This document shows positions 2,648 to 28,999 of a DNA stretch of 32,000 nt, one piece after another. Source of the stretch: Erysipelotrichaceae bacterium OH741_COT-311 (GTDB taxonomy: Bacteria; Bacillota_I; Bacilli_A; Erysipelotrichales; Erysipelotrichaceae). The stretch covers positions 90,001-122,000 of the forward strand of contig RQZE01000007.1 of the NCBI GenBank assembly GCA_003858585.1. Reading direction: 5' to 3'. The stretch's first letter is position 1. Each line of letters opens with the position of its first letter. A model generated the notes under the pieces. It saw only the letters and a list, made by a program, of their open reading frames with translations, had not been told where the DNA came from and did no database searches. The position numbers and the translations under genes were made by a program.

Positions 2648-4102
2648 TTATTGTTTTAAACGTACATCCAATCGATCCAAGATAACATCAATACGGTTTA
2701 TCTGTTCATGTCTTTTTAATTTTTGATTCATTTCATGGATAAAAGTATGGTAATCATAAGTTTCCTCTTTTACAAATAAGATTGCATTCAAGTTTTGATT
2801 TTCAACATAAAACTTAGCACTTGTAATCAAATTACAATGCTGTTTCAGTATCTCTTCTAATTCATCAGGATAAATATTTTCACCTTTATCAGTTAAAAGC
2901 ACCGCTTTCTTTCTTCCCTTAATGTAAAGATGTCCACGTTGATCAATATAGCCTAAATCTCCGGTAAGAAAATAGCCTTCCTCATTAAACGCTTCTTTTG
3001 TAGCATTCAAATTATTCATATAACCCAAAAATACACAATCTCCTTTTACAGCCAATTCTCCTACTCCATCTTTATCCGGTTGAATCACTTTAACATCAAT
3101 ATCTTCAAAGACAACACCTTCACTATTAAAGTTTTCTTGATTAGCATATTCAATGGCAAAGGAAGAAGCCGTTTCCGATAAAGCATAAGCACACAAAAAA
3201 GAAATACCTGCATCTAAATACGCTTGTTTAATTGATGAATCCATGGATGATCCTCCACAAAATAAATACTTAATACAGCCTCCAAACACACTTGGAAGTA
3301 ATGCATTATTTTGGTGAACTGCTTGATACATTTTCTTATAAATAAGTGGAACGGAACAAAATACGGTTGGTTTTACTTCTAACAACTCCTTAGGAATATG
3401 ATCAATATGACTACATAAATAAAGTTGCATACCTGAAATCAAAGAATAATAAAAATTATAGATACCCCCATAAGTATGATGCAACGGTAAAAATAAATAA
3501 CAACGATCTGTCCTATCCATTGGAGCTCGTTTCTTTAAGGAAGGATAACCGGCAAATATATTTTTTTCACTTAACATAACCGCCTTCGGTAAAGAAGAAG
3601 TCCCTGAAGTAAAGACCACTTTAATACAAGCATTTGGATCACGATAATCAAAATCTAAAAATGGTTTTTGTAAAGATTTTCCTAACGCAATAAGCTTTTC
3701 TATTTCATTCATAGATATAAATGTTACATTTGGAAAAGAGGAAGAAACCTCATCCATTATCTTTTGTTTCTCAGATTCATAGATAACCAATGAAACATCT
3801 AAAAAGGAAACAATGTTTTGAATATCTTTAGCGTTACTTTCTTTACTAACACCAATACTTGTACCTACAAAACCAGCTATCGCTACATCAAAAACCATCC
3901 ATGTATAAGAATTAGCACCAAATAACACAATATTTTTATCTTGATACCCTTGATGAAGCAATCCATACGCAACATTATTTACATCTTCTATAAATCTTTT
4001 AAAGGTATAGGGTATATAGACATCTTTTTCTTTTTCATAGATAAAATTGTGATGACTCCATTTTTGATAATCATCCAATAGTATATCTTTAAAGTGATAC
4101 AT
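2648..4102 (-). CDS. AMP-dependent synthetase/ligase (acyl-CoA synthetase-like adenylating enzyme)
   Basis: ANL motifs TSGTSSLPKAV (A3), YALSETAS (A5), LTGDLGY (A7) and KGRKKAVLLTDKGENIYPDELE (A8). AAGGAG RBS; 14-nt overlap with the upstream gene. Confidence 0.85.
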   Translation of the reverse strand: MYHFKDILLDDYQKWSHHNFIYEKEKDVYIPYTFKRFIEDVNNVAYGLLHQGYQDKNIVLFGANSYTWMVFDVAIAGFVGTSIGVSKESNAKDIQNIVSFLDVSLVIYESEKQKIMDEVSSSFPNVTFISMNEIEKLIALGKSLQKPFLDFDYRDPNACIKVVFTSGTSSLPKAVMLSEKNIFAGYPSLKKRAPMDRTDRCYLFLPLHHTYGGIYNFYYSLISGMQLYLCSHIDHIPKELLEVKPTVFCSVPLIYKKMYQAVHQNNALLPSVFGGCIKYLFCGGSSMDSSIKQAYLDAGISFLCAYALSETASSFAIEYANQENFNSEGVVFEDIDVKVIQPDKDGVGELAVKGDCVFLGYMNNLNATKEAFNEEGYFLTGDLGYIDQRGHLYIKGRKKAVLLTDKGENIYPDELEEILKQHCNLITSAKFYVENQNLNAILFVKEETYDYHTFIHEMNQKLKRHEQINRIDVILDRLDVRLKQ

Positions 4103-5165
4103 CTTTTATCTCCTTTTGTAACAATACATATTCATAACGTTCTTCAATCAACTCATCCATATACGTTTGCGTGATTTTACCTTCTTTTTGTAAAGCCCCA
4201 ATACTTGTAACTTGCTTATGCTTTAATGTCTCTACAATACTCTGGACAATAGCCTTCCCTAATCCTTGATGACTTGCATCAACCCCCATATACAACATGA
4301 CATATTCCTTTGGTTTACGTTTTATATTAAAAATACGAATTAAATTTTTAAAATTTAAACGATATACCAAGTTATGATAATTAGGAACACTAATATAAAA
4401 ACCAACTGCTTCGTTTCGATAATACACCATCTTAACCATACTTAAATCAATAATCTTTTTATACAAGGAAAAATATTCTTGAAAATCTTTTGCACTAATT
4501 TCCTTATAAACAGGAAAATCTTTATAGAGATTACGAATTAAATGATATAACTGCAATGTAACTTTATCCCAATCTTCCATTTTTGGACTACAAATTTTAT
4601 AGCCTTCCATTATCTTTTCTTGATAACGATCTACATATTTTTTACTTTGAAACATCTGATTTACACGATAATACTTAGAAGATGTATAACGCTCATAAAC
4701 CTGATAATCATGTTTTAAAAACATTGCATAATAATATTCTTTGTTATAAGGCTCCCCCGTATAAGGAAGCTTATCAAATCGATTCACTTTTAAACGATAG
4801 GTTAACCAAAAAGACGCATCTACCGGTCCAACTATTTTTCGATATCCAAGAAGTTTTGCTTGTAAATCTATTTGTTCAAATAAAAAATCACTCACTTCAT
4901 CATTTTCTATACACTCAAAAAAACCTAAATATAGAATTTCATCTTTAGGATATTTCGTAAAAACAAAACGAGCAACAACTTCTTTATTTTGATAGACTAG
5001 ATATTTCTTTAATTGAAAATACTTACTAAAGGGATGTTGATCAAGCAATAATTGTTTTACTTCCATATCATTTTGCATATTTGTATCTTTGCTATACAAA
5101 CAATTGGCAAATCCGATAAAGTCTTTGATATACTTTTTCTGATGTTGAAATTCTATTAGCTCCAT
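4089..5165 (-). CDS. GNAT-family acyltransferase-like protein (358 aa, extended N-terminal region)
   Basis: C-terminal acyl-CoA-binding motif Q-x-x-G-x-A (HQGLGKAIVQS) preceded by a beta-strand-like YMGVDAS. The RBS is embedded in the end of the upstream gene. Confidence 0.55.
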   Translation of the reverse strand: MELIEFQHQKKYIKDFIGFANCLYSKDTNMQNDMEVKQLLLDQHPFSKYFQLKKYLVYQNKEVVARFVFTKYPKDEILYLGFFECIENDEVSDFLFEQIDLQAKLLGYRKIVGPVDASFWLTYRLKVNRFDKLPYTGEPYNKEYYYAMFLKHDYQVYERYTSSKYYRVNQMFQSKKYVDRYQEKIMEGYKICSPKMEDWDKVTLQLYHLIRNLYKDFPVYKEISAKDFQEYFSLYKKIIDLSMVKMVYYRNEAVGFYISVPNYHNLVYRLNFKNLIRIFNIKRKPKEYVMLYMGVDASHQGLGKAIVQSIVETLKHKQVTSIGALQKEGKITQTYMDELIEERYEYVLLQKEIKDVSL

Positions 5166-5168
5166 ACC

Positions 5169-7508
5169 TTAACTCCTAGCCATAATTTTAACAATACCAT
5201 TTTTAGAATCTAACGCTACATAATCTCCATCTTTTAATACTTCCATAACTCCTTCTACTGCAACAATAGCGGGAATCTTTAACTCTCTTGAAATAATCGC
5301 AGTATGTGATAACAAAGAACCTTTTTCTACAATAATCCCCTTACACTGTGTTAATAAAAATACCCAGCCAGGATCGGTCATCCTAGCCACAATGATTTTA
5401 TCTTTTACATCGACCTCTTTACCCGGTTCTACCACAACCACACACCCCTCTACATCTTTGGCATAGTTTGCCTGTCCATACAAGTAATCCACCTCTTTAG
5501 AAACTACATGACTATGTATGGATTTAAAGGTCTTTGAAACATGTAAATCCGTCAAGATTAATCGAGAATACGATGGTAGTTGTTTATAGCGCTCATACAT
5601 GTCTTTTCGCTGTTGTATGATGTGTTTCTTATCTTCTTGGTTTGTAATTAAATCAAACATTTCCTGCAAAGATAAATAAAAGATGTCTTCTTTTTTTTCA
5701 ATGATATTTAACGCTTGTAATTTTTGTGCAAAAGATAAACAAATAGCACGTACCATTCCAAATATACGTGTACGATTTAATCTTGATTTCTCACGATTTT
5801 CAATACCTAAAAGTGCTCTTTTTACAAACATTCCTTTAGGCTTACTTACTTCTTGTATTGCTAATTGTTTTTCTAATGCATATAACTTATCCATATCTTT
5901 ACAATAGTCTTCTATCTTTTCATCCAATAGCTTCGGATTTACTTTAAACGTAACACTTTCTAACTTTAATTCTTCGATACATCGATCGCCATATAAAGCT
6001 AAGTACTCTTGATAATGGGAAAAGAAATCTACATGTTGTTCATGTTTCAAAATAGCTAATTTAACTAAAGATTGAATAGGCTTTAAACTTTCTATCTGAC
6101 TAATACCTGAAATAAACGAAACAACTTTTTCATTGTATTGATCCGGATATTTTTTCTTTAAACGTCTCTTTAATAAACCCGTGAAAATAAACGCATACAT
6201 ATCATTTAAAAGGGTAATATCCCAACACTCAAGTAACTGTTCTTTAATATCATCAAACAATACTTTTAACTCCGCTAAAGATAACTTTTCTAAATTTTGT
6301 TTTTGAAACGATTGATATATAGTTTGAAACGTTGTATCCAACTTCTTCATTGCCTTTGGTGTTTTGAATAATTCATATAGAAAATGAAAATATGTCTTAG
6401 CTTTACTTATCCATGGTAACTGTAAATCCTTTAAAGGATAATCCTTACTCTTTACACCCAACATTTCCTGCCAAACAGATATGATTTTATGACTCATCGG
6501 TAAAAACTGTAATAGTTTATACCAATTATGAATTTGATAGTACATACGCCCATTCATACTGCTCACCATATTAGAATAGACATCATTAAACTTTTCACTA
6601 AGTTTATCATCTTTCAATACACGTTTAGATACCCCTTTAAAAACATCGGTATAAATCAAACGAGCAAAGCTATCCGTTAAAGGAAGAGAAATACCCGGAT
6701 AACTTTCAACGATATTACTATTATCTAGAATATAAATGGTTTCATCAGATATAGAAGTAATTGGTCGAGCTTGTAAGATGTATAATTGATTTTCTTTAAA
6801 ACAAAATTCAACATCAACATACTTCAACTTTAATGCCTCTTTAATTCTCTTTATCTCATGAATGATTTTTAAAATCATATCTTTCTCTAAAAGATCTTCA
6901 AAACCATCATAGTAATATACCTGATCATAAAGATTGTAATAATAAGAAGTCGTTTCCACCCTATCTAAAACAACATCATCTCCAAGTCCTTTTGCAACCG
7001 TAATAACTGCTTCATTTAAAATACCAATAGGATTAGAAGAAAAACAAATACCTGAATATTCAGCATCAATCATCGTCTGAATTATCACATGCATTTTCAC
7101 GTTTCTTACATCAATCTCTTTTAACATCATATACTCAAGGGCTTTTACACTGTAAAGCGATTGTAGACACTGGATGATAAAAGTTTCAATATCGTTAGGA
7201 TCAACATTTAAAAAAGATTCAAATACTCCTGCAAAACTATCACTTTTTCCATCTTCGACATTACAACTTGAACGCACCGCTACCTTTTGATATAGAACAT
7301 CTATAGGCTTAGCTTTATAACAATCTAAAAGATGTTCTTTTAACAAAGTACTCCATACATTTAAATCTGGATGCTTTTCAGCCACAAAACGTTTAAGATC
7401 TTCTTGTAAAACCTCTTGATTCTGTATCACTTCATCAAAATCAACCACAACAAAGCTAGGTATGCAAATCCCTGCTTGTTGCATTGCTTGTAAATGATAG
7501 TGCTTCAT
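5169..7508 (-). CDS. PEP-utilizing enzyme family protein (PPDK_N ATP-grasp domain + C-terminal swivel phospho-His domain; PEP synthase / rifampin-phosphotransferase-like architecture)
   Basis: N-terminal VRSSCNVEDGKSDSFAGVFESFLNV matches the PEP/pyruvate-binding ATP-grasp signature. C-terminal MTDPGWVFLLTQCKGIIVEKGSLLSHTAIISRELKIPAIV matches the mobile His domain. Confidence 0.85.
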   Translation of the reverse strand: MKHYHLQAMQQAGICIPSFVVVDFDEVIQNQEVLQEDLKRFVAEKHPDLNVWSTLLKEHLLDCYKAKPIDVLYQKVAVRSSCNVEDGKSDSFAGVFESFLNVDPNDIETFIIQCLQSLYSVKALEYMMLKEIDVRNVKMHVIIQTMIDAEYSGICFSSNPIGILNEAVITVAKGLGDDVVLDRVETTSYYYNLYDQVYYYDGFEDLLEKDMILKIIHEIKRIKEALKLKYVDVEFCFKENQLYILQARPITSISDETIYILDNSNIVESYPGISLPLTDSFARLIYTDVFKGVSKRVLKDDKLSEKFNDVYSNMVSSMNGRMYYQIHNWYKLLQFLPMSHKIISVWQEMLGVKSKDYPLKDLQLPWISKAKTYFHFLYELFKTPKAMKKLDTTFQTIYQSFQKQNLEKLSLAELKVLFDDIKEQLLECWDITLLNDMYAFIFTGLLKRRLKKKYPDQYNEKVVSFISGISQIESLKPIQSLVKLAILKHEQHVDFFSHYQEYLALYGDRCIEELKLESVTFKVNPKLLDEKIEDYCKDMDKLYALEKQLAIQEVSKPKGMFVKRALLGIENREKSRLNRTRIFGMVRAICLSFAQKLQALNIIEKKEDIFYLSLQEMFDLITNQEDKKHIIQQRKDMYERYKQLPSYSRLILTDLHVSKTFKSIHSHVVSKEVDYLYGQANYAKDVEGCVVVVEPGKEVDVKDKIIVARMTDPGWVFLLTQCKGIIVEKGSLLSHTAIISRELKIPAIVAVEGVMEVLKDGDYVALDSKNGIVKIMARS

Positions 7509-8407
7509 TATATTTTACCTCTAAGTAAAAAGATAACCACCGTTAATAACATCATTGTTTCTTGAATATACGTATAAGTCTCTACTTTCATAACGATACG
7601 ATAACGATTTGGATTACGGTAATATTCTACAAACTTGTACGTCATCCATGAGACTAACAAGACAAATAAACCAACCATAATCTTATTTAAATTCCATACT
7701 AAAATAATATTGGTTACAATATCAACAATCGTTAAAATCAATACCAGAATAATCATCTTTTTATAACCAAATAACTTAGAATAGGTTACATACTCTGTTT
7801 CTTCTTGTGGTGCTCTAATTTTGCGACTTAACTCCCATATCAACGATGGAAAATACAAAGTGAATGCTACTAAACATGTCGTAAGTGAAAACGGATGTAG
7901 TTGATACTTGATACAAGTAAAAGATATGACATAAATATTTACAAATATTTGAACTGGATTATGTGTAATTAAAGCCAATGGTAAACTTGATTGTATTTTA
8001 TTTTTCTTAAAAAACCACTTACTCATTAAATACCCATAGATATGTAATACCACAAAGAATATAAAATTATTCATGTACATAGCGTTTAATATTACTGATA
8101 CGAGTAATACCATGGAACATACAAGAATTAAATCCGATTTTTTTACCTTACCACTTGGTAAAGGACGCTCTTTAAACAAGCGTTTGTCTAATTCATAATC
8201 TTTAAAATCATCTGCAATTCTAAGCCACATATAAAACGCAAAAATGGTATATGCCCCTATTAGCTCTTGCAACCCAATATGAAAGCTAGTGATACCATAG
8301 TTTAATAACACTAAAAAGTAAATTTCATTAAATACAATAAGACCTAAAAATAGTCTAGGTATAATAGGAAACATGATGGAAAAATAACAGTGCAATCGTT
8401 TAAGCAT
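7508..8407 (-). CDS. Polytopic membrane protein, UbiA-type prenyltransferase-like
   Basis: About 8 hydrophobic segments. Asp-rich loop RIADDFKDYELDKR resembles the first UbiA D-x-x-D-x-x-x-D motif. Its TAA stop overlaps the ATG of the next gene by 1 nt (TAATG). Confidence 0.6.
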   Translation of the reverse strand: MLKRLHCYFSIMFPIIPRLFLGLIVFNEIYFLVLLNYGITSFHIGLQELIGAYTIFAFYMWLRIADDFKDYELDKRLFKERPLPSGKVKKSDLILVCSMVLLVSVILNAMYMNNFIFFVVLHIYGYLMSKWFFKKNKIQSSLPLALITHNPVQIFVNIYVISFTCIKYQLHPFSLTTCLVAFTLYFPSLIWELSRKIRAPQEETEYVTYSKLFGYKKMIILVLILTIVDIVTNIILVWNLNKIMVGLFVLLVSWMTYKFVEYYRNPNRYRIVMKVETYTYIQETMMLLTVVIFLLRGKI

Positions 8408-8531: not shown

Positions 8532-10964
8532 TTAAATAAATAAATTCATATTAGAATTGTCACTATCATGTAACATCGTCGCAACTCCGCCAATTTCTAC
8601 TCCATCAATAAGCTCTTCTTTTGTGATTCCCATTACATCCATAGACATTTGACAAGCTACAATTTTAACCCCATTCGCTATTGCTTCTTGGATTAATTCT
8701 TCTAATGAAGAAACACCTTTCTTCTTCATTACTTGTTTCATCATTAATGAACCGGCACCTGCAAAATTCATCTTTGATAAACCTAGCTTACGACTTCCCT
8801 TAGGCATCATAAAACCAAACATATTAGAAATCATGTCCTTTTTAACATTTATTTTTTCATGTTTTCTTAAAATATTTAGACCCCAAAACGTAAAAAACAT
8901 ATTTACTTTATTTCCCATAGCCAATGCACCATTTGCAATAATAAAGGCTGCCATAGCTTTATCTAAATCTCCATCAAAAACAATCATTGTTTTTTCTTTA
9001 CCCGCAGTTGTACACGTCACATGATTACAAGCACTTTTCTTCAAAAGTTCCACTTCCCAAATACCCTTTGTTTCTTTTCTTGAAAGCAACTCATTTCCGG
9101 TATTTAGGCACCAACTTTCAATGTCTCTTGCAAAACCCGGGTCACTGGATTTTACGTGTAGAATTTCTCCATCTTTAAGTTCCGCCATCTTTTTACCAAC
9201 ATTAACAATCGGTCCCGGACAACACAAACCGCAAAGATCAATCGAAGTTACCTTTGTTTCTTCCTTAGCAACAAGTTTATCTTGTTCAATAGGCATACTC
9301 TTTACTTCTTGTGATTTAAGTTCGTTATAAGACTTAAAACCACCAATTAAATTACGTACTTTATACCCCTTTTGTTTTAAAATGCGTTCTGCTAGATACC
9401 CTCTTAATCCAACTGCACAATAAACAACAATTTCACTATTCTTATCTAACTTTGTATATTCTTTTCTTAGTTTTGTTAAAGGAATGCATACCGCATTATC
9501 CACAATACCATTGGCTGTTTCAGCATCTTCACGAACATCAACCAATACATATTGATCTTTTTTATTTTGCCATTCCTCATACGTAATCGGATTTGTTAAC
9601 CCTTCAAAAATATTGGTTGCATAGTAACCAACCATATTTACCGGATCTTTCGCTGATGAAAATGGTGGAGCATAAGCAAGTTCTAACTTTGTTAAATCAT
9701 AGATTGTTGCTTTAAAGTGCATACTTGTAGCAATCGTATCAATACGTTTATCTACACCATCATAACCTACAATTTGAGCCCCCAATACTCTTCCATCACT
9801 TAACGAAAACACAAGTTTCAATGTCATAGACAAAGCATTGGGATAATAACCTGCATGTGACATTGGATGTATCATCGCAATACCATAATCTTTCCATAAA
9901 GTTAAATTACGATTCTTTAAGCTCTTTTCATTTTCTCCTGTTGCTGCAACCGTTAAATCAAAAACTTTTACAATACTTGTTCCAATTGCTCCATCAAATG
10001 TTTCTTCTTTTTTACCCAAGATGTTTGCGGCAACAGCTCTTCCCTGTTTATTAGCAATCCCAGCCAGTGGAATCATCGTCTTTAAGTCATTTACTTTATT
10101 TGTTACTTCAATCATATCTCCTACTGCATAAATATCAGGATTGCTTGTTTGCATCTTCTCATTTACAATCACACCACCTCTTGCATTTAAAGCAATGCTT
10201 GTATCCTTTAAAAAGGCAGTATTTGGTCTTACACCAATCGAAAGTAAAATCATATCCGTATCTAACGTTGTACCATCTGTAAGTAACACTTGCTTCCCTT
10301 GATTTACAATCGCCTTTAAACCTGTCTTTACACGTAAATCCACTTGATGTTTTGTAACATGATTCTCTACAAGCTTAGCCATATCCTTATCTAATGGAGC
10401 TAAAATTTGATCGGCAAATTCTACAAGAGTAACCGAAATTCCACGATGGGCTAAGTTTTCTGCCATTTCAATCCCAATAAAACCACCGCCGGCAACCACC
10501 GCTTTTTTAGGTTGATGTTCTTGAATAAAATGATAAATCTTATCCGTATCCGGGATATTCCATAAAGTAAAGACATTTTCATTTTCTAAGCCTTCCATCG
10601 CCGGAACAAACGGATAAGAACCTGTTGAAAGTAATAACGCATCATAAGTTTCTTCATACTCTTGATTCTTTTTGTGATCTTTAATAATTACTTTTTTATT
10701 TACTTCATCAATACGAATTACTTCACTAAAATTTCGTATTTCCACTCCATATTTACCTTCAATAGATTGAATATTCGATACAAACAATGCGTCACGTTGT
10801 TTAATGGTATTTCCTATATAATACGGTAATCCACAGTTTGCAAAGGATACATACTCCCCTTTTTCAAGCAAAAGAATTTGGGCATCTTCATCCAATCTGC
10901 GTAATCTTGATATGGCAGTTGCTCCACCTGCAACTCCACCGACAACAATAATTTTTTTAGCCAT
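8532..10964 (-). CDS. CoA-disulfide/persulfide reductase fused to rhodanese, TusA-like and DsrE/DsrF-like domains (810 aa)
   Basis: GxGxxG (VVGGVAGG) and redox Cys in SFANCGLPYY (CoADR/NPSR signature). Rhodanese loop VVYCAVGLRGY. TusA motif CGLCCPGPIV. C-terminal DsrE-like block ...GVKIVACQMSMDVMG. GGAGGAG RBS; the start overlaps the arsR-family stop by 8 nt. Confidence 0.85.
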   Translation of the reverse strand: MAKKIIVVGGVAGGATAISRLRRLDEDAQILLLEKGEYVSFANCGLPYYIGNTIKQRDALFVSNIQSIEGKYGVEIRNFSEVIRIDEVNKKVIIKDHKKNQEYEETYDALLLSTGSYPFVPAMEGLENENVFTLWNIPDTDKIYHFIQEHQPKKAVVAGGGFIGIEMAENLAHRGISVTLVEFADQILAPLDKDMAKLVENHVTKHQVDLRVKTGLKAIVNQGKQVLLTDGTTLDTDMILLSIGVRPNTAFLKDTSIALNARGGVIVNEKMQTSNPDIYAVGDMIEVTNKVNDLKTMIPLAGIANKQGRAVAANILGKKEETFDGAIGTSIVKVFDLTVAATGENEKSLKNRNLTLWKDYGIAMIHPMSHAGYYPNALSMTLKLVFSLSDGRVLGAQIVGYDGVDKRIDTIATSMHFKATIYDLTKLELAYAPPFSSAKDPVNMVGYYATNIFEGLTNPITYEEWQNKKDQYVLVDVREDAETANGIVDNAVCIPLTKLRKEYTKLDKNSEIVVYCAVGLRGYLAERILKQKGYKVRNLIGGFKSYNELKSQEVKSMPIEQDKLVAKEETKVTSIDLCGLCCPGPIVNVGKKMAELKDGEILHVKSSDPGFARDIESWCLNTGNELLSRKETKGIWEVELLKKSACNHVTCTTAGKEKTMIVFDGDLDKAMAAFIIANGALAMGNKVNMFFTFWGLNILRKHEKINVKKDMISNMFGFMMPKGSRKLGLSKMNFAGAGSLMMKQVMKKKGVSSLEELIQEAIANGVKIVACQMSMDVMGITKEELIDGVEIGGVATMLHDSDNSNMNLFI

Positions 10965-21355: not shown

Positions 21356-23560
21356 ATGCGCAAATTGAAATTTAATAGCCTAATTCTTTTAACATTTATA
21401 CTTATTTTAACTTCATGTGGTCAAAAGAAAACAACATCTACCGCTTCACAAACACAACCAAAAGCAGTAGAAAACACACAATCCAAAGAAACCCAAGAAG
21501 TAAAAAATGAAACGAACGAAACCAAAGAAACTACAAAAGAAACTACAGGAAAGAAACCGGATGTTACAGGTTCTATCGCAAGTTATTACCAACATGGAGA
21601 TCATTGGCACATTACTTTAAGTAATGGAGATACTATGGTTACTTCAAAAGATCCTAGAAAGATTTTTCCAAAAGAAGCTTTCTTAAATGCAACAGAAGCC
21701 ACAGAAGTAATCACTACACAAACAAGTAGTAAAAGTGGTAAAACAATAGTATCTTGGTATAAACATGGTGATCATTGGCACCTAGTTTATAGCGATGGTT
21801 CAGAAGGAGTATCTTATACAGATCCATCTTCATCATCAAACACTTCTAACCATACAAGTGAACCTTCTGTTCATACAGAAAATGAAGTACGACCTATTGT
21901 TCATAAGTCGGAGCTATTCGATAAAGTTATCGATCATAAAGATCATATCCATGTATGGGTAAATAATGTAGAATATGTACTTTCAAGAGAACTCTATGAT
22001 ACCTTTGTACGTGAAAAGAAATTTGATGAAGTACGTGCTAGAGGATTAGATGGTCTATATTACGATCAAATTCAAAGCAAACAATTAAAAGAAGAAGTAG
22101 AATACATTGCTAAAGCATATGGAGTAAAATTGGAAGCAATTCGTGTCAGTGACAGTTATTTTAGCTTCAATGATCCTTCACATGAATATGACCCTACACA
22201 TATTCATCCATTCTTTGTATCACGCAAGCTTTTCTATATTCCAGAAAAAACAGGTATTCCTGAACTGGATTTCGAAAATGAACTAATCAGTGTAGCACAT
22301 CGCAGCCAAATACCAGTACCCAACATGATTGTAAGAGATCATCGATTTGTCTTACCTCATGGTAGTCATGAACACTATGTTAATATCCTTACTGATGGTT
22401 ACGATGCATACATGCAAAACAAAAAACCTTCATTAAGTGGTCCTTATGTACAAGGAGAGCTTAACGAACAATCAGTTTTAGACAAAGTAAATCAATTAAA
22501 AAAATCCGTTAATGAAACGTATCCGAATCGTCTTGAAAACCGTAGAGTTATGCGTCTTTTAGAAGAATTTGAATATTTGCTACAAGAATTAAAAGCAAAT
22601 TCAACACAAGGATATTTAAACATTTTACAAAAATTTGAAGATCTTTATATCACAAAACAAGGAACAGATATTATTGTTGATGATAGTGATACAGAAACCG
22701 TAAAATTGTATCAAGATTTGCTACAAACTATTTCATTAAAAGATGAGCGTTTCTTTCAAAAATTATTCCTTGATAAACAAACCTTAATTGCTGAAATCAA
22801 TGACAACTCTACCAATAAAGAAAAGCTTTATGAATATACATATAAATTAAAAGAATATGAACGTTTCGATGGAAGGGTTACAATTGTTGGCTTAGGTTAC
22901 GTTCAATATTTAGTCGAACACTTTGAAAAACCTAACATCGCACCTAGTCTAAAAGATGAAATTGCGACACTATTAAATGAAGTTACAGATAAGTTCTTCT
23001 TTAAAATGGATTCCCATGTAGCAACATTTGTCGATCTAAATATTAAATTAAATAAAAATTTAAAATTAGAAGAAGAGTATATCATTAACGATTTTAGTGC
23101 ATATCCTAATTATTTCAAATTTACAACAGCAAACTATCGAAGCCGTATCGAAAGTTTTGTAAAAGAAATGGAAAATTTATTGCTTCCTATTGAACTTCCG
23201 GACACTTCTAAATTACCTAACGATTTTATGGGCGATATAAAAGCGGAAAAGGTAACGGAAGAAATAAAAGTACCATCTACATCGGATTCTACTGATGATA
23301 CAAGTATTACTCCTTCATCTACATTAGAAGAAGCACTAAAACCAACAGAAGAAGGAAATCCTTCTACCGAAGTAACCGAAGATGCAGAAGAAAAAAATCC
23401 AGAAAGTGAATCAACAGATGTTCCAGAAACAGCTGTTGAAGAAACAAACACGAATACAGAAACAGAAATCTTGCCACCTTCTAGTGATACAGAAGAAACA
23501 CTAGACACGATGAATAACTCTTTACCGGCAGATGATAGCATAACACAACCTACCGAATAA
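21356..23560 (+). CDS. Histidine-triad (Pht-like) surface lipoprotein with an acidic Thr/Glu/Ser-rich C-terminal tail
   Basis: Signal peptide plus lipobox LILTSC. HxxHxH triads: HGDHWH (twice), HKDHIH, HGSHEH. Low-complexity tail PSTSDSTDDTSITPSS...TEETLD. Confidence 0.8.
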   Translation: MRKLKFNSLILLTFILILTSCGQKKTTSTASQTQPKAVENTQSKETQEVKNETNETKETTKETTGKKPDVTGSIASYYQHGDHWHITLSNGDTMVTSKDPRKIFPKEAFLNATEATEVITTQTSSKSGKTIVSWYKHGDHWHLVYSDGSEGVSYTDPSSSSNTSNHTSEPSVHTENEVRPIVHKSELFDKVIDHKDHIHVWVNNVEYVLSRELYDTFVREKKFDEVRARGLDGLYYDQIQSKQLKEEVEYIAKAYGVKLEAIRVSDSYFSFNDPSHEYDPTHIHPFFVSRKLFYIPEKTGIPELDFENELISVAHRSQIPVPNMIVRDHRFVLPHGSHEHYVNILTDGYDAYMQNKKPSLSGPYVQGELNEQSVLDKVNQLKKSVNETYPNRLENRRVMRLLEEFEYLLQELKANSTQGYLNILQKFEDLYITKQGTDIIVDDSDTETVKLYQDLLQTISLKDERFFQKLFLDKQTLIAEINDNSTNKEKLYEYTYKLKEYERFDGRVTIVGLGYVQYLVEHFEKPNIAPSLKDEIATLLNEVTDKFFFKMDSHVATFVDLNIKLNKNLKLEEEYIINDFSAYPNYFKFTTANYRSRIESFVKEMENLLLPIELPDTSKLPNDFMGDIKAEKVTEEIKVPSTSDSTDDTSITPSSTLEEALKPTEEGNPSTEVTEDAEEKNPESESTDVPETAVEETNTNTETEILPPSSDTEETLDTMNNSLPADDSITQPTE

Positions 23561-25034: not shown

Positions 25035-25046
25035 AGAATAACAAAA

Positions 25047-25085
25047 AAAGACATTTGTTCAACAGAACAGATGTCTTTTATTATT
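25047..25085 (+). terminator. Rho-independent terminator
   Basis: AAAGACATTTGTTC-aaca-GAACAGATGTCTTT hairpin (25047-25078), followed by a T-rich run. Confidence 0.7.
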
Positions 25086-25169
25086 TTAATCATTAACAAA
25101 GTTTTAAACTTTATTGATTAACAACACTACCGTCTCGACGTGTTAATGATTGTCCAAACTTTTAATCGC

Positions 25170-26207
25170 TTATTGTTCTAATGAGTCAAAAAGCATATTG
25201 GCGACAATATTAAAACCTGCGGCAGATGAAAATTGTGAAAACCTATTACCTTTATACCATTCATCTTGACTAATATTAGTATTTACAATCCAATATTCTA
25301 CTTCTGAAATAAATTGTTCTAAATTATAATTCTTATTTTGTTTTTTCAATTGCAAAATTATATATTTATTTATTGCTGAAACGCCTATTGTTCCCTGAAT
25401 AACTGAATTATTAATGGATTCTTCTTTGAATAAATTAGGCCACTTAAATTTTACTGCATCCCAAATTTTTAAATATATACCCTTTATATCATTAATAATT
25501 TCATTCAACTCTTTATCATTTTTCCAATCAATTCCAATAATATTATACTTGTTCAAATAACTTATTAACATTTGAATACTTTTCACAAAAGAATTAAGAC
25601 TTATTGTTTCATTTGAATTTCTAGTTGGATTGCCTTCCAACAGTATCCTGTTATACCATAATGAATTTCTATCACTATTAAGATTAATTGCTAACTCAAC
25701 TGCTAAAAATTCTTTTTTAGCAATTGTCAAATCACTAGATGAAGTATTATTTCTATTAATTTTATTCTTCAAAACATATGCAAGAGAAGTATCCACTTTT
25801 CTTGATGTTTTATTAATCGTAATAAAAGTATCTACTTCCAATGCCTCACTTGGTTTTTCAAGAATTACAACCGATAATTCACAATCTTTTATATCATTAT
25901 ATTTATCCGGATTATTTTCCTTTAGTTTTTTAAAAGCTTCTACCCTATGTTGACCATCAACAATATTAAGCGTTGTATCATTTGTAACTTCTTCGTCTGT
26001 AGCACATATAATTGAAGTAGGCAAATAAAATGGATTCTCTTTCAAATATTGTACAATATTTGAAACATGATTTTCGTTTACTCGCCTTTGATAACCAGTA
26101 AATTTAATATTATCAAATGTTCTAACCTTAGTATTTCTAACTAACCAATCTACAGTTTTAATATCATTTATGATTTTGCAGCCACATTCTTGTTTTATAG
26201 TTTTCAT
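25170..26207 (-). CDS. DGQHR-domain protein (DndB-like, ParB/sulfiredoxin-fold)
   Basis: 345 aa. FTGYQRRVNENHVSNIVQYL..., then LNIVDGQHRVEAF (literal DGQHR motif), then FITINKTSRKVDTSLAY. This order is typical of the DGQHR/DndB family. Confidence 0.8.
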   Translation of the reverse strand: MKTIKQECGCKIINDIKTVDWLVRNTKVRTFDNIKFTGYQRRVNENHVSNIVQYLKENPFYLPTSIICATDEEVTNDTTLNIVDGQHRVEAFKKLKENNPDKYNDIKDCELSVVILEKPSEALEVDTFITINKTSRKVDTSLAYVLKNKINRNNTSSSDLTIAKKEFLAVELAINLNSDRNSLWYNRILLEGNPTRNSNETISLNSFVKSIQMLISYLNKYNIIGIDWKNDKELNEIINDIKGIYLKIWDAVKFKWPNLFKEESINNSVIQGTIGVSAINKYIILQLKKQNKNYNLEQFISEVEYWIVNTNISQDEWYKGNRFSQFSSAAGFNIVANMLFDSLEQ

Positions 26208-26211
26208 GATT

Positions 26212-26649
26212 CTATTCCTCTTCTTTCGTAATATTATCTTTTCTTAAATAAGATAAAGCTTTGATGGTTGTATTAAAAATGTCCTTTTCTATTTCTTGTT
26301 TTTCTTGGTCTAAAAGATCAAACTCCTCAGGATCATAAGCTTTATCACGCACTTGTTTTATTAAGTATCCTAATAGAATATCTTCATCTTCAAATTCATA
26401 AAGCAGCTTCGCTATCGCACAGAATTTTCGTAACTTAGAACCGTCAATTTCTTTTTTATAACTTTCAATTTCTTTTTTATAACTTTCAATTTCTTTTTTA
26501 TAACTTTCAATTTGTTCATTAGGTTCAATGTTAATTTTTTCTTTTTTATAACTTTCAATTTGTTCATTAGGTTCAATGTTAATTTTTTCTTTTTTATAAC
26601 TTTCAATTTGTTCATTAGGTTCAATGTTAATTCTTCGCCTAAAATTATT
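26212..26649 (-). other. -1-frame open continuation of the RelA/SpoT-like gene (145 codons, no ATG/TTG of its own), ending 4 nt before the DGQHR ATG
   Basis: Minus-strand frame with codon starts congruent to 0 mod 3 is open from just after TGA TGA (26655-26650) to TAG (26214-26212). It reads NNFRRRINIEPNEQIESYKKEK(INIEPNEQIESYKKEK)INIEPNEQIESYKKE(IESYKKE)x2 IDGSKLRKFCAIAKLLYEFEDEDILLGYLIKQVRDKAYDPEEFDLLDQEKQEIEKDIFNTTIKALSYLRKDNITKEEE*. This explains the otherwise ORF-less gap 26208-26411. Confidence 0.6.
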
Positions 26650-27350
26650 TCATCATTTTGTAACTCTGATAATGTATATTTGAAAAATAATTCTTGCTTA
26701 ATTTCTTTCAATTCAACACTAAAAGAATATAGCCTATTTAATTGTGTATCTGCTCCATCCAAAATGTGATAAAGTCCTTCCACCATATCCTTTTTTAGTT
26801 TTGCACGGGAATCATATACTCTACTTTTATAAATTGTACTATGTTCAACTTCACCCCATACATCATTTAATAATGATTTAACTTGAACTTCAAATGAAAA
26901 TTTCTCATCTAGTTCCTTGTATTTACATGCAATCTTATATATTTCATGACCATTTTTTTGTTTGGTATTTGGGAATTCTTCAATTTCTATACAATCCATT
27001 TCTTTCAAATGTTTTATTAGCTCTTCAAATATGTTTTTTTCATCTTCTTTAAAATAGCAATTCAGTCTAAAGCCTATTAAATCAGGTAACTTCTCGCAAA
27101 CTATTCTTTGAATTTCTTTATTATTACTAGTCTTAATTCCCCATTGATTTATATAGTCTTTTCTTTCTAATTTCTCTCTTAAACTCTCCTCACTTTTTAT
27201 TCGTGAATTAACCTCTTTTGATACCTTCTTTCTCGCTAATTTTTTTATATAGTCCTTTAAAATTTTTTCTATATCAATTCGTTTTCTTTGAAGCTCATTT
27301 TGAAACTCTATATCTATAAAAGCATTCATTATTTCATCAACTACAATCAT
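26412..27350 (-). CDS. RelA/SpoT-homologue (RSH) synthetase-like nucleotidyltransferase, small alarmone synthetase/toxSAS-like; 0-frame ORF ending in a repeat-encoded Lys-rich tail (probably frameshifted)
   Basis: All four RSH synthetase blocks occur in order: SRIKSEESLREKLERK (RxKxxxSxxxK), DLIGFRLNCYF (DxxGxR), NGHEIYKIACKY, and FEVQVKSLLNDVWGEVEHSTIYK (ExQxR/K-T/S...W....H...YK). Compare B. subtilis YjbM: GRVKPVASILEKARRK / DIAGLRIMCQF / EIQIRTLAMNFWATIEHSLNYK. AAGGAG RBS 7 nt upstream of the ATG. Confidence 0.8.
   Translation of the reverse strand: MIVVDEIMNAFIDIEFQNELQRKRIDIEKILKDYIKKLARKKVSKEVNSRIKSEESLREKLERKDYINQWGIKTSNNKEIQRIVCEKLPDLIGFRLNCYFKEDEKNIFEELIKHLKEMDCIEIEEFPNTKQKNGHEIYKIACKYKELDEKFSFEVQVKSLLNDVWGEVEHSTIYKSRVYDSRAKLKKDMVEGLYHILDGADTQLNRLYSFSVELKEIKQELFFKYTLSELQNDEIILGEELTLNLMNKLKVIKKKKLTLNLMNKLKVIKKKKLTLNLMNKLKVIKKKLKVIKKKLKVIKKKLTVLSYENSVR
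26445..26632. repeat. Compound perfect tandem repeat: 3 x 21 bp (26445-26507) followed by 2.6 x 48 bp (26508-26632)
   Basis: 21-bp unit CAATTTCTTTTTTATAACTTT. The 48-bp unit is the same unit with a 27-bp insert (CAATTT|GTTCATTAGGTTCAATGTTAATTTTTT|CTTTTTTATAACTTT). Copies are identical by eye, and both unit lengths are multiples of 3. Confidence 0.95.
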
Positions 27351-27383
27351 CGTTATCTCCTTTTAAAATATATAATGTATTAT

Positions 27384-28982
27384 TCATATTAGGAATAGCA
27401 TATTAAAATTTCTCAAAGCATTCAAAATAGCTTCTTCCTTTTCAATTGAACACTGTGGAACTCTCCGGTTATCGTTCTTTGAAATATTATAGTGTTCCCT
27501 AGCTTCTAAACCATGCTTTTTCTTAACTTGTGCAATGTACAGAGTAGATACTTTAAACCCAAACTTTTCCAAAACATAGTTTTGAATTTGTTTATATGTT
27601 ACCTTACTTTCAGCGCTTGTTAAATCCATATCATCCATCGGAAGTTCTACACTAATATATTTCTTAGAATCAAGTTTGGAAAGCAACACAATGGTTTCCA
27701 CATGACTGGTAAATGGAAACATATCTACAGGCTGTACATCTTCTACCTTGTAGTTTAACTCTTCAAAGACTTTACAATCTCTTGCAAGTGTTGAAGGATC
27801 ACAAGAAACATATACCACCTTTTTTGGCTTCATAGCGACAACAGTATCAATCGCCTCTTTCGATAATCCCTTCCGTGGCGGATCAACTACCACAATATCA
27901 ATCTTATCTTTCTTAAGCAACTCTTTACTTACTACTCCGGCATCCCCACATAGAAACTCAATATTCTCAATACCATTCATCTTGGCATTGTACTTTGCAT
28001 CTTTTACCGCATCTTCTACAATTTCAATTCCATACACATACTTTGCCTTCAGTGCCAAAAACATCCCTATCGTACCTGTTCCACAATATAAATCAACACA
28101 TATATCAGCGTCACTAACATTACACTGTTTAATAGCTTGACGATATAATTTAACTGTCTGTATCGGATTAATTTGATAAAAAGATTTGCTTGATATTTTA
28201 AACTTTAAACCATCCAATTCATCAATAATATAATCTTGATTCCATAATAGTTTTTCTTCTTCTCCCATAATAACATTATCTTTACGAGAATTGATATTTA
28301 GTATTACAGATTTAATTTCTTTAAATTTTCTAGTTACATCCTCTACAATTTCTTTTAAATGTATTTCTTCCTTTACAATAAAAACAAGCATAATTTCATT
28401 GGTCGTAAAGCCATGTTTAATCAAGATATGCTTTATTTTTTTGCTTTCTTTACATCCCTTTAATAGCTCTTTTAAATATTGAATAATCGCATTGGATAAA
28501 TCACTTTGTACCATACAGTAATCAAAAGAAACAATGTCATTACTATGATTACGATAAAATCCCATCCTTAATTCATCTTCATACTGTAGTGGAACTTGGA
28601 CCTTATTACGATACTTATATGGCTCTTCCATACCAATAACATCTTTAACCTCAACATCCATTTTCCCAATGGTTCTAAAGCAATCTTGTACTCGTTTTTT
28701 CTTTAAAATCAATTGATATTCATAACGAATATGTCCATATTGACAACCTCCACATTTTCCATTTACACTACACAAAGGCACAATACGATACTCAGAGGCT
28801 TGTTTTAACTCTAGCACTTTACCAAAAGCATGATTCTTTTTTACAGATAGAATTTTTACAAGTGCTACTTCTCCTATTAATAAATCTTTTACATAAACAG
28901 TAAAAGAACCTTCTTTACAAACTCCAAAGGCATCATAGGTAACATCTATACACTCTAATAATAATTCTTCATTCTTTTTCAT
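27384..28982 (-). CDS. 23S rRNA (uracil-C5)-methyltransferase, RumA/RlmD/RlmCD family, with a non-canonical 95-aa C-terminal extension
   Basis: N-terminal TRAM domain. Fe-S cysteines CSVNGKCGGCQ plus a later C. SAM motif DLYCGTGTIG. Catalytic VVDPPRKG and YVSCDPSTLARD. The family normally ends near MFPFTSHVETIVLLSK, but here the frame continues for 95 more residues. Start set at ATG 28982 (MKKNEE...) rather than the TTG at 28997. Confidence 0.9.
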   Translation of the reverse strand: MKKNEELLLECIDVTYDAFGVCKEGSFTVYVKDLLIGEVALVKILSVKKNHAFGKVLELKQASEYRIVPLCSVNGKCGGCQYGHIRYEYQLILKKKRVQDCFRTIGKMDVEVKDVIGMEEPYKYRNKVQVPLQYEDELRMGFYRNHSNDIVSFDYCMVQSDLSNAIIQYLKELLKGCKESKKIKHILIKHGFTTNEIMLVFIVKEEIHLKEIVEDVTRKFKEIKSVILNINSRKDNVIMGEEEKLLWNQDYIIDELDGLKFKISSKSFYQINPIQTVKLYRQAIKQCNVSDADICVDLYCGTGTIGMFLALKAKYVYGIEIVEDAVKDAKYNAKMNGIENIEFLCGDAGVVSKELLKKDKIDIVVVDPPRKGLSKEAIDTVVAMKPKKVVYVSCDPSTLARDCKVFEELNYKVEDVQPVDMFPFTSHVETIVLLSKLDSKKYISVELPMDDMDLTSAESKVTYKQIQNYVLEKFGFKVSTLYIAQVKKKHGLEAREHYNISKNDNRRVPQCSIEKEEAILNALRNFNMLFLI

Positions 28983-28999
28983 ACTTGTATTATACAAAA

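Follow-up and report, generated by a model that had tools for sequence, protein, structure and literature searches.

A RelA/SpoT-like enzyme gene and a DGQHR-domain gene form a co-inherited mobile cassette, a possible conflict module that survives as a decayed remnant beside rumA in an Erysipelotrichaceae genome

Background

Do a gene for a RelA/SpoT homologue (RSH) and a gene for a DGQHR-domain protein that lie one behind the other in a bacterial genome form a system of their own, and what might such a system do? The question is raised by Erysipelotrichaceae bacterium OH741_COT-311 (assembly GCA_003858585.1), in which the two genes occupy positions 25170 to 27350, on the minus strand, of a 32,000-nucleotide stretch of contig RQZE01000007.1 (positions 90,001 to 122,000), hereafter the window. 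A first-pass annotation of the window had proposed an undescribed two-component defence or toxin-antitoxin-like system. We find that the two genes almost certainly make up a functional, co-inherited mobile module of some kind. We tentatively read this module, at somewhat less than an even chance, as a mobile sensor-effector conflict module of the toxSAS type, with the enzyme as effector and the DGQHR protein as its inhibitory controller.

Several characterized systems frame this question. The toxSAS enzymes arrest growth through synthesis of (pp)pApp or (p)ppGpp or by adding pyrophosphate to the 3' ends of tRNA, and they can serve in phage defence (PMC7229694, PMC11782079, PMC9712102). In PANGU type I, the GRel toxSAS has an acidic C-terminal DNA-mimic domain through which it is activated by a YejK-like protein; this protein is bound to DNA and comes free when the DNA is degraded (bioRxiv 10.64898/2026.04.06.716658). 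DndB binds DNA as a dimer and regulates its own expression (PMC4507180). In SspE, DndI and GmrSD, a ParB/DUF262 domain with NTPase activity senses the modification of DNA and governs the nuclease to which it is attached (PMC11662687, PMC12065111).

Results

The two genes recur as a pair

We searched an enzyme profile against one genome per species and recovered 27 loci, 18 of them with full-length relatives. A DGQHR open reading frame (ORF) lies immediately downstream in 17 of these 18. The reverse search used a DGQHR profile against metagenomes and viral contigs and considered genes with enough upstream DNA. An RSH-like ORF lies directly upstream of all 22 close and of 21 out of 23 intermediate DGQHR genes (43/45 together), and of 1/15 and 0/11 of more distant DGQHR proteins. 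We checked ten distant upstream partners, and all ten pass the PF04607 threshold, with 36-47 bits. In total, the genes are adjacent in 60 of 63 informative loci from Clostridia, Erysipelotrichaceae, Streptococcus, Campylobacter and unbinned metagenomes, with variable flanks. The two families are thus regular neighbours across genomes, where the first-pass annotation had allowed that they might never be neighbours elsewhere. Identities among cassette homologues range from 28 to 80%, so the adjacency is not an artefact of one clonal element.

The genes overlap by 1 or 4 nt, or are separated by a gap of ≤15 nt, in most of the listed loci. A mirror-tree comparison of enzyme and DGQHR distances across 51 pairs gave a Mantel r of 0.96, a value reached in none of 2000 permutations. 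All-against-all clustering of the flanking proteins revealed no third conserved gene. These data support an obligate cassette whose two genes are apparently translationally coupled and co-evolving. The hosts include Lachnospiraceae, Oscillospiraceae, Christensenellales, Erysipelotrichaceae, Streptococcus mitis and Campylobacter (including Campylobacter concisus). The family is small, with 128 members among 1.84 billion representatives at E ≤ 1e-30 (~95 of them full-length), or about 100 clusters at 50% identity.

It is very improbable that the two genes have no functional link, that is, that a housekeeping small alarmone synthetase happens to lie beside a DndB-like regulator. Such a chance arrangement would suit an enzyme that is nearest to RelP/RelQ in sequence and fold and the many loci with housekeeping flanks, but it leaves the adjacency among variable flanks, the gene overlaps and the co-divergence of the proteins unexplained.

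Two groups of candidate loci were rejected as members. The 341-aa ORF beside a small RSH gene in a deltaproteobacterial locus (L026), considered as a distant pair, encodes DNA polymerase III delta'. The ~450-aa RSH relatives of Christensenellaceae (L019-L025) lack a DGQHR gene and have housekeeping flanks. In L019, L020 and L025 (for example L019, 7602-13308), the gene order is WYL/WCX regulator, NAD synthase, RSH and threonyl-tRNA synthetase. This nearest relative without a DGQHR partner seems to be a housekeeping alarmone synthetase that carries an extension at its C-terminus.

The enzyme is an alarmone synthetase-like protein with a shortened G-loop

The RSH ORF in the window matches PF04607 (RelA_SpoT) over aa 49-177 with E = 2.9e-14 and 53.8 bits (cutoff 27), which bears out its identification from the letters alone. 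The blocks SRIKS..S..EK..RK, DLIGFR, FEVQVKS and WGEVEH..IYK are invariant in 34 enzyme homologues. At the level of single residues, R50, K52, K60, R63, D90, G93, Q131, N133, G134, K139, E154, Q156, K158, W165, E167-H170, Y174 and K175 are invariant or nearly so. The catalytic motifs RxKxxxS, DxxGxR (with the catalytic Asp), ExQ(I/V)(R/K) (with the catalytic Glu) and H..YK are present and align to those of RelP/RelQ. The earlier statement that the protein has every RSH synthetase block holds for the catalytic Asp (DLIGFR) and Glu (EVQVKS) but not for the G-loop. HMMER alignments to RelP show that the loop is four residues shorter than in RelP/RelQ (NG----H vs NGYRSLH) and lacks the acceptor-stacking Tyr of GYxSxH; family members have H, R, N, F or K behind NG. 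With such a loop, the acceptor cannot be assumed to be GTP/GDP or tRNA A76.

We modelled an intact 368-aa homologue (P0122) that is 97% identical to the window enzyme (AlphaFold, mean predicted local distance difference test score (pLDDT) 87.8). Residues 1-210 adopt a small-alarmone-synthetase fold in the model. The top Foldseek matches of this part are RelP/RelQ (E = 5e-8), and FaRel, CapRel and FaRel2 rank below them, with E about 2e-4. Residues 214-354 form a helical domain for which Foldseek found no structural match. The last ~43 residues make up an acidic tail in all 34 members (mean net charge -10). The tail is short, variable and poorly conserved, with no folded domain. Mean identity is 21-35% in the C-terminal domain and tail, compared with 50% in the catalytic core. 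The PANGU structure 9UFP was not among the PDB sequence matches of the enzyme, and PADLOC gave the enzyme only a chance-level match to GajB.

The partner is a DndB-like protein with a ParB fold

The DGQHR gene (25170-26207, minus strand) is intact and encodes 345 aa, comprising an N-domain with the ParB/sulfiredoxin fold and a DndB-type helical C-domain. The protein scores 101.2 bits against TIGR03187 (cutoff 58.85) and 48 bits against PF14072 (DndB; cutoff 29). TIGR03187 and TIGR03233 had both been named as models to search; the first matched, and TIGR03233 (DndB) gave no match. The protein also falls below the dnd-associated equivalog TIGR04172 (59.5 bits vs a 450-bit cutoff) and the DpdB equivalog NF041060 (57 bits vs a 300-bit cutoff), and PADLOC returned only a weak partial DpdB match (56 bits). 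Pfam and NCBIfam searches of the partner matched DndB/DGQHR models only, and no YejK/NdpA model. Many DGQHR homologues carry a precomputed match to PF03235 (DUF262).

The DGQHR, YQR and INK blocks pointed out in the first-pass annotation are present and prove to be invariant across homologues, as GYQR, IVDGQHR (D84-G85-Q86-H87-R88) and E..F.TINK / TINKT..KVDTSLAY. GYQR, DGQHR and E..F.TINK correspond to the nucleotide-binding boxes of the ParB superfamily (PMC12065111). The AlphaFold model (pLDDT 89.5) has a ParB/sulfiredoxin N-domain followed by a helical C-terminal domain. Its Foldseek matches are ParB-N 5k5d, PadC 6ryk, ParB 7bm8, KorB 8qa9 and sulfiredoxin 3cyi, with probabilities of 0.9-1.0 and E-values of 2e-3 to 0.1. 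The PHROG match is likewise ParB-like (1e-11). A PDB sequence search with the DGQHR profile gave no match, and no nuclease domain was detected in the 345-aa protein by Pfam, in the model or by Foldseek. The DGQHR protein is roughly neutral overall (mean pI 7.2). Mean identity is 39-42% in the last third, compared with 65% in the ParB core. The fast-evolving C-terminal domain and tail of the enzyme and the last third of the DGQHR protein are candidates for a mutual interface or for trigger recognition.

These features would also suit a trans-acting counterpart of SspE, DndI and GmrSD. The ParB-fold NTPase would read DNA modification or integrity and would control, in place of a nuclease, a RelA/SpoT-type pyrophosphokinase with a non-canonical acceptor. 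The DNA states that it would read are phosphorothioate, 5-methylcytosine, or the absence of these on invading or damaged DNA. Under such a scheme, the shortened, Tyr-less G-loop would imply that the acceptor is either the 3' end of a nucleic acid or some nucleotide that is neither GTP nor GDP. We consider this scheme unlikely.

Some cassettes lie among DNA modification and defence genes

We inspected 131 flanking proteins of the close group. Most are ordinary; they include five C5 DNA methylases, and also MutH/Sau3AI-like, helix-turn-helix (HTH) and ResIII proteins. In L045 (159-3808), L052 and L055, the RSH gene starts within an overlapping ORF for a Dcm C5 methylase, which suggests co-transcription, and a MutH/Sau3AI-like gene is near. 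In L031 (1592-4375), Dcm and a MutH-like gene precede the RSH-DGQHR pair, and a 965-aa SIR2_2 protein follows it. Two different sub-branches thus have Dcm and a MutH/Sau3AI-like gene as the immediate upstream neighbours of the cassette. Upstream of the cassette are a NERD-helicase in L040 and L005, and an SNF2 helicase and then a protein with a NO VEIN C-terminal domain (NOV_C; 3750-4694) directly before the cassette in L050. In L109, a NOV_C/DUF3427 protein (6695-7690) lies directly upstream and a GmrSD_N protein downstream. A NOV_C protein is therefore the direct upstream neighbour in two unrelated loci, L050 and L109. BglII-like and HNH nucleases and a Panacea protein are near the cassette in L108.

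A distant branch of the pair is embedded in dnd clusters, which serve DNA phosphorothioation, in the order HTH-dndC-dndD-dndE-RSH (551 aa)-DGQHR (363 aa)-dndA-NERD/UvrD helicase-553-aa protein. This arrangement is found in L060-L067, L071 and L084, and also in L072, L074 and L066, with partial evidence in L043, L061 and L070. The HTH gene before dndC is RstR/Cro-like, and no canonical dndB is present in these clusters. After dndA (for example in L062, 8247-13011) comes a 1034-aa protein with NERD and UvrD-like helicase domains, and then a 553-aa protein without a family match. The helicase and the 553-aa protein may be the restriction arm of a dnd variant. The position of this branch inside dnd clusters, together with the position of other cassettes behind Dcm, ties the module to DNA modification. 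The window contains no dnd genes, and most cassettes likewise have none near.

These neighbourhoods bear on a rather doubtful alternative in which the pair is a signal synthase and its receptor. The product of the enzyme, a pyrophosphorylated nucleotide, would be recognized in the NTP pocket of the DGQHR protein, without any toxicity, and the DGQHR protein would then alter its DNA binding and tune modification genes (dnd, dcm) or the element itself. The branch in which the DGQHR protein stands in for DndB inside dnd clusters, and the Dcm genes that overlap the enzyme start, agree with this proposal. DndB is a transcriptional autoregulator (PMC4507180), and the title of a 2019 paper, as cited in PMC11662687, calls DndB autoregulation ATP-modulated. 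The invariant ParB-pocket residues and an enzyme that is nearest to the alarmone synthetases RelP/RelQ fit as well. However, most cassettes, including the window copy and its parent on a conjugative element, have no modification genes near, so there is nothing obvious to regulate. To our knowledge, no ParB-fold protein binds (p)ppNpp. Mobile, patchy two-gene cassettes with frequent decay of one partner are also more typical of conflict modules.

The cassette is cargo of a conjugative element

In its closest relatives, the intact cassette is cargo of an integrative and conjugative element (ICE) and lies just upstream of the conjugation module. The genes that follow it in the ICE of the L115 type are DUF6017, DUF3801, TraG/VirD4, Maff2, TrbL_2 and PrgI. 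In the window, homology to the ICE extends exactly from 25120 to 27707, and its left border falls within rumA. This segment is a low-G+C islet between rumA and an oxidoreductase gene, a remnant of ICE cargo that is 96.5% identical to positions 6533-9088 of L115 and to L116, with the same borders. The G+C contrast described from the first inspection is real but smaller than the spot counts had indicated. G+C is 26% in the RSH and DGQHR genes, compared with 31-32% in rumA, the oxidoreductase gene and the whole window.

The rumA ORF (27384-28997, minus strand) encodes 537 aa. Its core (27696-28997, minus strand) is rumA (rlmD), for the 23S rRNA U1939 methyltransferase, and is the chromosomal target gene of the integrated element. 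It matches TIGR00479 over aa 21-434 with 405 bits, and PF05958 as well. The 3' end had been called aberrant, and the odd tail does exist. The ~95-aa tail (LSKLDSKKYISVELPMDDMDLTSAESK...; 27384-27707, minus strand) belongs to the segment in which homology to L115 begins, at 27707. L115 has three paralogous junction ORFs (2152-2382, 6503-6775 and 9087-9377), each with the RumA C-terminal motif HVE..LL, followed by KLD..K.ISVEL..D..DLTSAESKATY.... They delimit separate cargo modules, and one lies on either side of the cassette. A frameshift or annotation artefact in rumA can be rejected, as the tail is 96% identical to the ICE junction ORF and has paralogues there. The tail is evidently a junction ORF of the element that gives rumA a substitute 3' end. 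A homologue of the rumA tail on the Anaerococcus plasmid pAPRE01 adjoins a serine recombinase and a MobQ relaxase.

The simplest reading of this locus is that modules accreted in tandem at rumA and that the conjugative part was then lost, leaving the cassette as a 2.6-kb islet. Other copies of the cassette follow rumA in L002 and L032-L034, and guaA in L001 and L003. Both genes are integration hot spots for the cassette.

Given its carriage on an ICE, the pair could also be a plain addiction (toxin-antitoxin) module that serves to stabilize a conjugative element or a genomic islet and takes no part in phage defence. In keeping with this, the two-gene layout is translationally coupled, the cassette rides as cargo directly ahead of the conjugation module, and a remnant of it outlasts the element. 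Its mechanism equals that of the toxSAS-type module that we prefer, and the biological role alone differs. The cassette has repeatedly come to lie in dnd clusters or next to genes for restriction-modification, SIR2, GmrSD and NERD/SNF2 helicases, which suggests more than addiction. We regard addiction as improbable as the whole explanation.

The enzyme gene is disrupted in the window

The nearest intact alleles are those of L115 and L116 (proteins P0122 and P0001), which are 96.5% identical to the window over 2.58 kb. The intact enzyme gene occupies positions 6890-7996 of L115. Comparison with L115 divides the window RSH gene, all on the minus strand, into three parts. The first (26637-27350; aa 1-238) is authentic and encodes the N-terminal helices and the complete small-alarmone-synthetase-type catalytic domain. 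The second (26444-26632) is rearranged and consists of perfect tandem repeats, three copies of a 48-bp unit and 3.3 copies of a 21-bp unit (Tandem Repeats Finder, 100% matches). The third (26212-26443) lies in another frame and encodes the remaining helical C-terminal domain and the acidic tail, up to the stop codon TAG at 26212-26214. Three-frame translation reveals this part, which matches the C-terminus of P0122 and of L115.

Relative to L115, ~106 nt encoding 'DYTNFFELIKYIKDSEKCVDRYLGKKLLTETYNKEK', the first helices of the C-terminal domain, were swapped for two extra 48-bp units (net -10 nt; -7 and -3 in the pairwise alignment). Two extra 21-bp units were inserted (+42 nt). The total change is +32 nt, and the RSH frame is shifted as a result. 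The gene is thus not simply frameshifted. It appears to have been disrupted by a repeat-mediated rearrangement since the loss of the element; this spared the catalytic domain (aa 1-238), and the DGQHR gene is intact. The perfect repeats may be an assembly artefact. The window copy is a decayed remnant and a poor allele for experimental study.

Decay elsewhere follows the same direction. Among decayed loci in which both genes lie fully inside a contig, four (the window copy, L017, L018 and L049) combine a full-length DGQHR gene with an RSH gene that has been broken or deleted, and the reverse case was not seen. This asymmetry fits the enzyme as the costly partner and the DGQHR protein as its neutralizer.

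Individual decayed forms vary. In L017 (2907-3986; Streptococcus mitis SK569), the RSH gene is split into three ORFs and the DGQHR gene is intact; the break is possibly a sequencing error. A metagenomic contig with the same downstream genes (L032, 2058-3161) has an intact RSH gene. On a 2735-bp metagenome contig, a 464-aa protein (P0034) joins the first ~225 aa of RSH in frame to the last ~240 aa of DGQHR. This fusion is a deletion allele and another form of decayed cassette.

The decay pattern is also relevant to the opposite direction of control, an activation similar to that in PANGU. The DGQHR protein would be parked on chromosomal DNA and released when that DNA is degraded or altered in infection, and it would then switch the enzyme on. 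The released protein would bind the C-terminal domain and the acidic, DNA-mimicking tail of the enzyme, which would otherwise be inert. PANGU type I is a precedent in which the isolated catalytic domain is inactive (bioRxiv 10.64898/2026.04.06.716658). The DNA-binding fold of the DGQHR partner, the acidic ~43-aa tail in every member and the tolerance of the window isolate for a catalytic domain without its native C-terminus are consistent with such activation. Several observations speak against it. The partner matches DndB/DGQHR models only and is not YejK-like, it is roughly neutral, and the acidic part of the enzyme amounts to a short tail with little conservation and does not form a folded domain. 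In addition, activation predicts that loss of either gene is equally harmless, whereas four loci have a broken RSH gene and none a broken DGQHR gene. We favour inhibition over activation because the downstream gene is translationally coupled and the enzyme gene is the broken one in each of these decayed loci. Activation is unlikely in our assessment, but it stays a serious rival because decay evidence from four loci is thin.

Layout and other features of the window

On the minus strand of the window, rumA is followed by a 33-nt gap with AAAGGAG, a 312-aa RSH ORF (27350-26412), its out-of-frame continuation to 26212 and the DGQHR ORF. The DGQHR ATG (26207) lies 4 nt past the last RSH stop (26212). 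The GenBank protein RRC92174.1, from Erysipelotrichaceae bacterium OH741_COT-311, is matched exactly. The tight, co-directional packing described in the first-pass annotation, with the 33-nt gap, the RSH ATG at 27350 and the ends at 26212 and 26207, was confirmed in every coordinate. The strong terminator reported behind the oxidoreductase gene was located at 25046-25079, as a hairpin with a 15-bp stem followed by a T-run. It is bidirectional and common to the cassette and the convergent gene, which encodes a pyridine-nucleotide-disulphide oxidoreductase. Rfam and tRNA scans of the window gave no match, so there is neither a candidate RNA antitoxin nor a tRNA attachment site. Elsewhere in the window (21356-23560, plus strand), a 734-aa predicted lipoprotein has, in translation, repeated HGDHWH / HxxHxH motifs like those of streptococcal histidine-triad proteins. 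Its C-terminal end is a low-complexity, acidic, Thr/Glu-rich tail.

Discussion

The preferred reading of the cassette, a conflict module of the toxSAS type, would work as follows. The effector would be the enzyme, with its N-terminal small-alarmone-synthetase domain, fast-evolving helical C-terminal domain and strongly acidic tail. Once freed, it would take pyrophosphate from ATP, pass it on to a nucleotide or to a nucleic-acid 3'-OH and so arrest growth. The DGQHR protein, with its ParB-fold NTP-binding domain and DndB-type helical DNA-binding domain, would be the cognate controller, and translational coupling would ensure that it is produced whenever the enzyme is. Most likely, it would keep the enzyme inactive, autoregulate the operon and sense the DNA state. 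Phage attack, an abnormal state of DNA modification or loss of the element would set the enzyme free. The window holds what remains of a conjugative element that targets rumA, namely its junction and the cassette, in which the enzyme gene was later disrupted and the DGQHR gene stayed intact. In this scheme, we infer the toxicity of the enzyme, the direction of control (inhibition versus activation), the trigger and the substrate.

Several of our results weigh against this reading. PADLOC found no real match for the enzyme, and its nearest solved relatives are the non-toxic housekeeping enzymes RelP/RelQ rather than toxSAS toxins. The G-loop Tyr that is absent here is required for activity in CapRel and Pag1B (bioRxiv 10.64898/2026.04.06.716658). 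The chemistry of the enzyme may therefore differ, or its activity may be low. Many flanks are plain housekeeping genes, with DNA methylases making up only ~5 of 131 flanking proteins, and the nearest unpaired relatives, in Christensenellaceae, stand in housekeeping contexts. In the dnd-embedded branch, the DGQHR protein takes the place of the regulator DndB, which fits a purely regulatory reading. Just four loci show the decay asymmetry, and a frameshift in a draft assembly may reflect a sequencing error. Finally, an ORF that combines the full catalytic domain with a scrambled C-terminal part is tolerated in the window isolate, and lethality of the catalytic domain by itself is therefore not obvious.

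We compared the cassette with described systems. It is functionally most like the toxSAS modules and PANGU type I, and its partner protein is most like DndB and the DUF262 sensors. The toxSAS modules (FaRel, FaRel2, PhRel, PhRel2 and CapRel; Jimmy et al. 2020, PMC7229694; Zhang et al. 2022, PMC9712102) likewise have a stand-alone synthetase, often in an overlapping bicistron, and occur on mobile elements. Their catalytic Asp, Glu, Arg and Lys motifs are kept in the cassette enzyme, and CapRel also has a C-terminal extension. The cassette differs in its partner, a 345-aa DGQHR/ParB-fold protein rather than a Panacea/PAD1, ATfaRel2, SAH or pseudo-ZBD antitoxin. It also differs in the upstream position of the enzyme gene, in the shorter G-loop without the essential Tyr and in having RelP/RelQ as the nearest structures.

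PANGU type I (the YejK-like nucleoid protein Pag1A with the GRel toxSAS Pag1B) is alike in being an operon of a DNA-binding protein and an RSH with an acidic non-catalytic C-terminal part. It sits in defence islands, and its logic, in which the DNA state is sensed and a nucleotide pyrophosphokinase responds, is the one that we propose for the cassette. The partner is YejK/NdpA in PANGU and a ParB/sulfiredoxin-type DGQHR protein here, the acidic part of the cassette enzyme is a short tail, and Pag1B keeps the G-loop Tyr (Y129) that cassette enzymes lack. With DndB, SspE, DndI and GmrSD/BrxU (PMC4507180, PMC11662687, PMC12065111), the cassette shares a DGxxR nucleotide-binding motif on a ParB fold with a helical domain, a link to DNA-modification systems and a logic of sensor plus effector. 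However, the cassette partner matches no DndB or DpdB equivalog model. In SspE, DndI and GmrSD, DUF262 is fused to a DUF1524/HNH nuclease, whereas the cassette has a separate RSH enzyme and no fused nuclease.

PADLOC v2 matched neither the RSH nor the DGQHR protein to a known system. We found no description linking a RelA/SpoT-domain protein with a DGQHR/DndB protein in the searchable literature, although most subscription journals were outside the search and absence is thus unproven. To this extent, the initial impression that no described system has this pairing has held. The proposal of a two-component defence or toxin-antitoxin-like system is partly supported, by a conserved, coupled cassette that is mobile and is often found next to genes for restriction or defence.

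Immune effectors of the RelA/SpoT type are a recent discovery (CapRel, FaRel2, PANGU), and each new partner has uncovered another way of sensing infection. If our preferred reading is true, the ParB-fold, DndB-like partner links RSH effectors to DNA-modification-based immunity. The occurrence of the pair in dnd clusters and behind Dcm leads to the testable idea that sensing of the DNA state is coupled to nucleotide signalling or translation arrest, and a new substrate is conceivable in view of the non-canonical G-loop. Should the pair instead act as a trans-acting counterpart of SspE, it would represent DNA-modification-coupled abortive infection with a new pyrophosphorylation chemistry and an unrecognized accessory arm of some dnd clusters. 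In this genome, the locus is only the decayed footprint of an element that was once at rumA. On conjugative elements of gut and oral Firmicutes and of Campylobacter concisus, the cassette may affect gene flow and phage susceptibility in host-associated microbiota.

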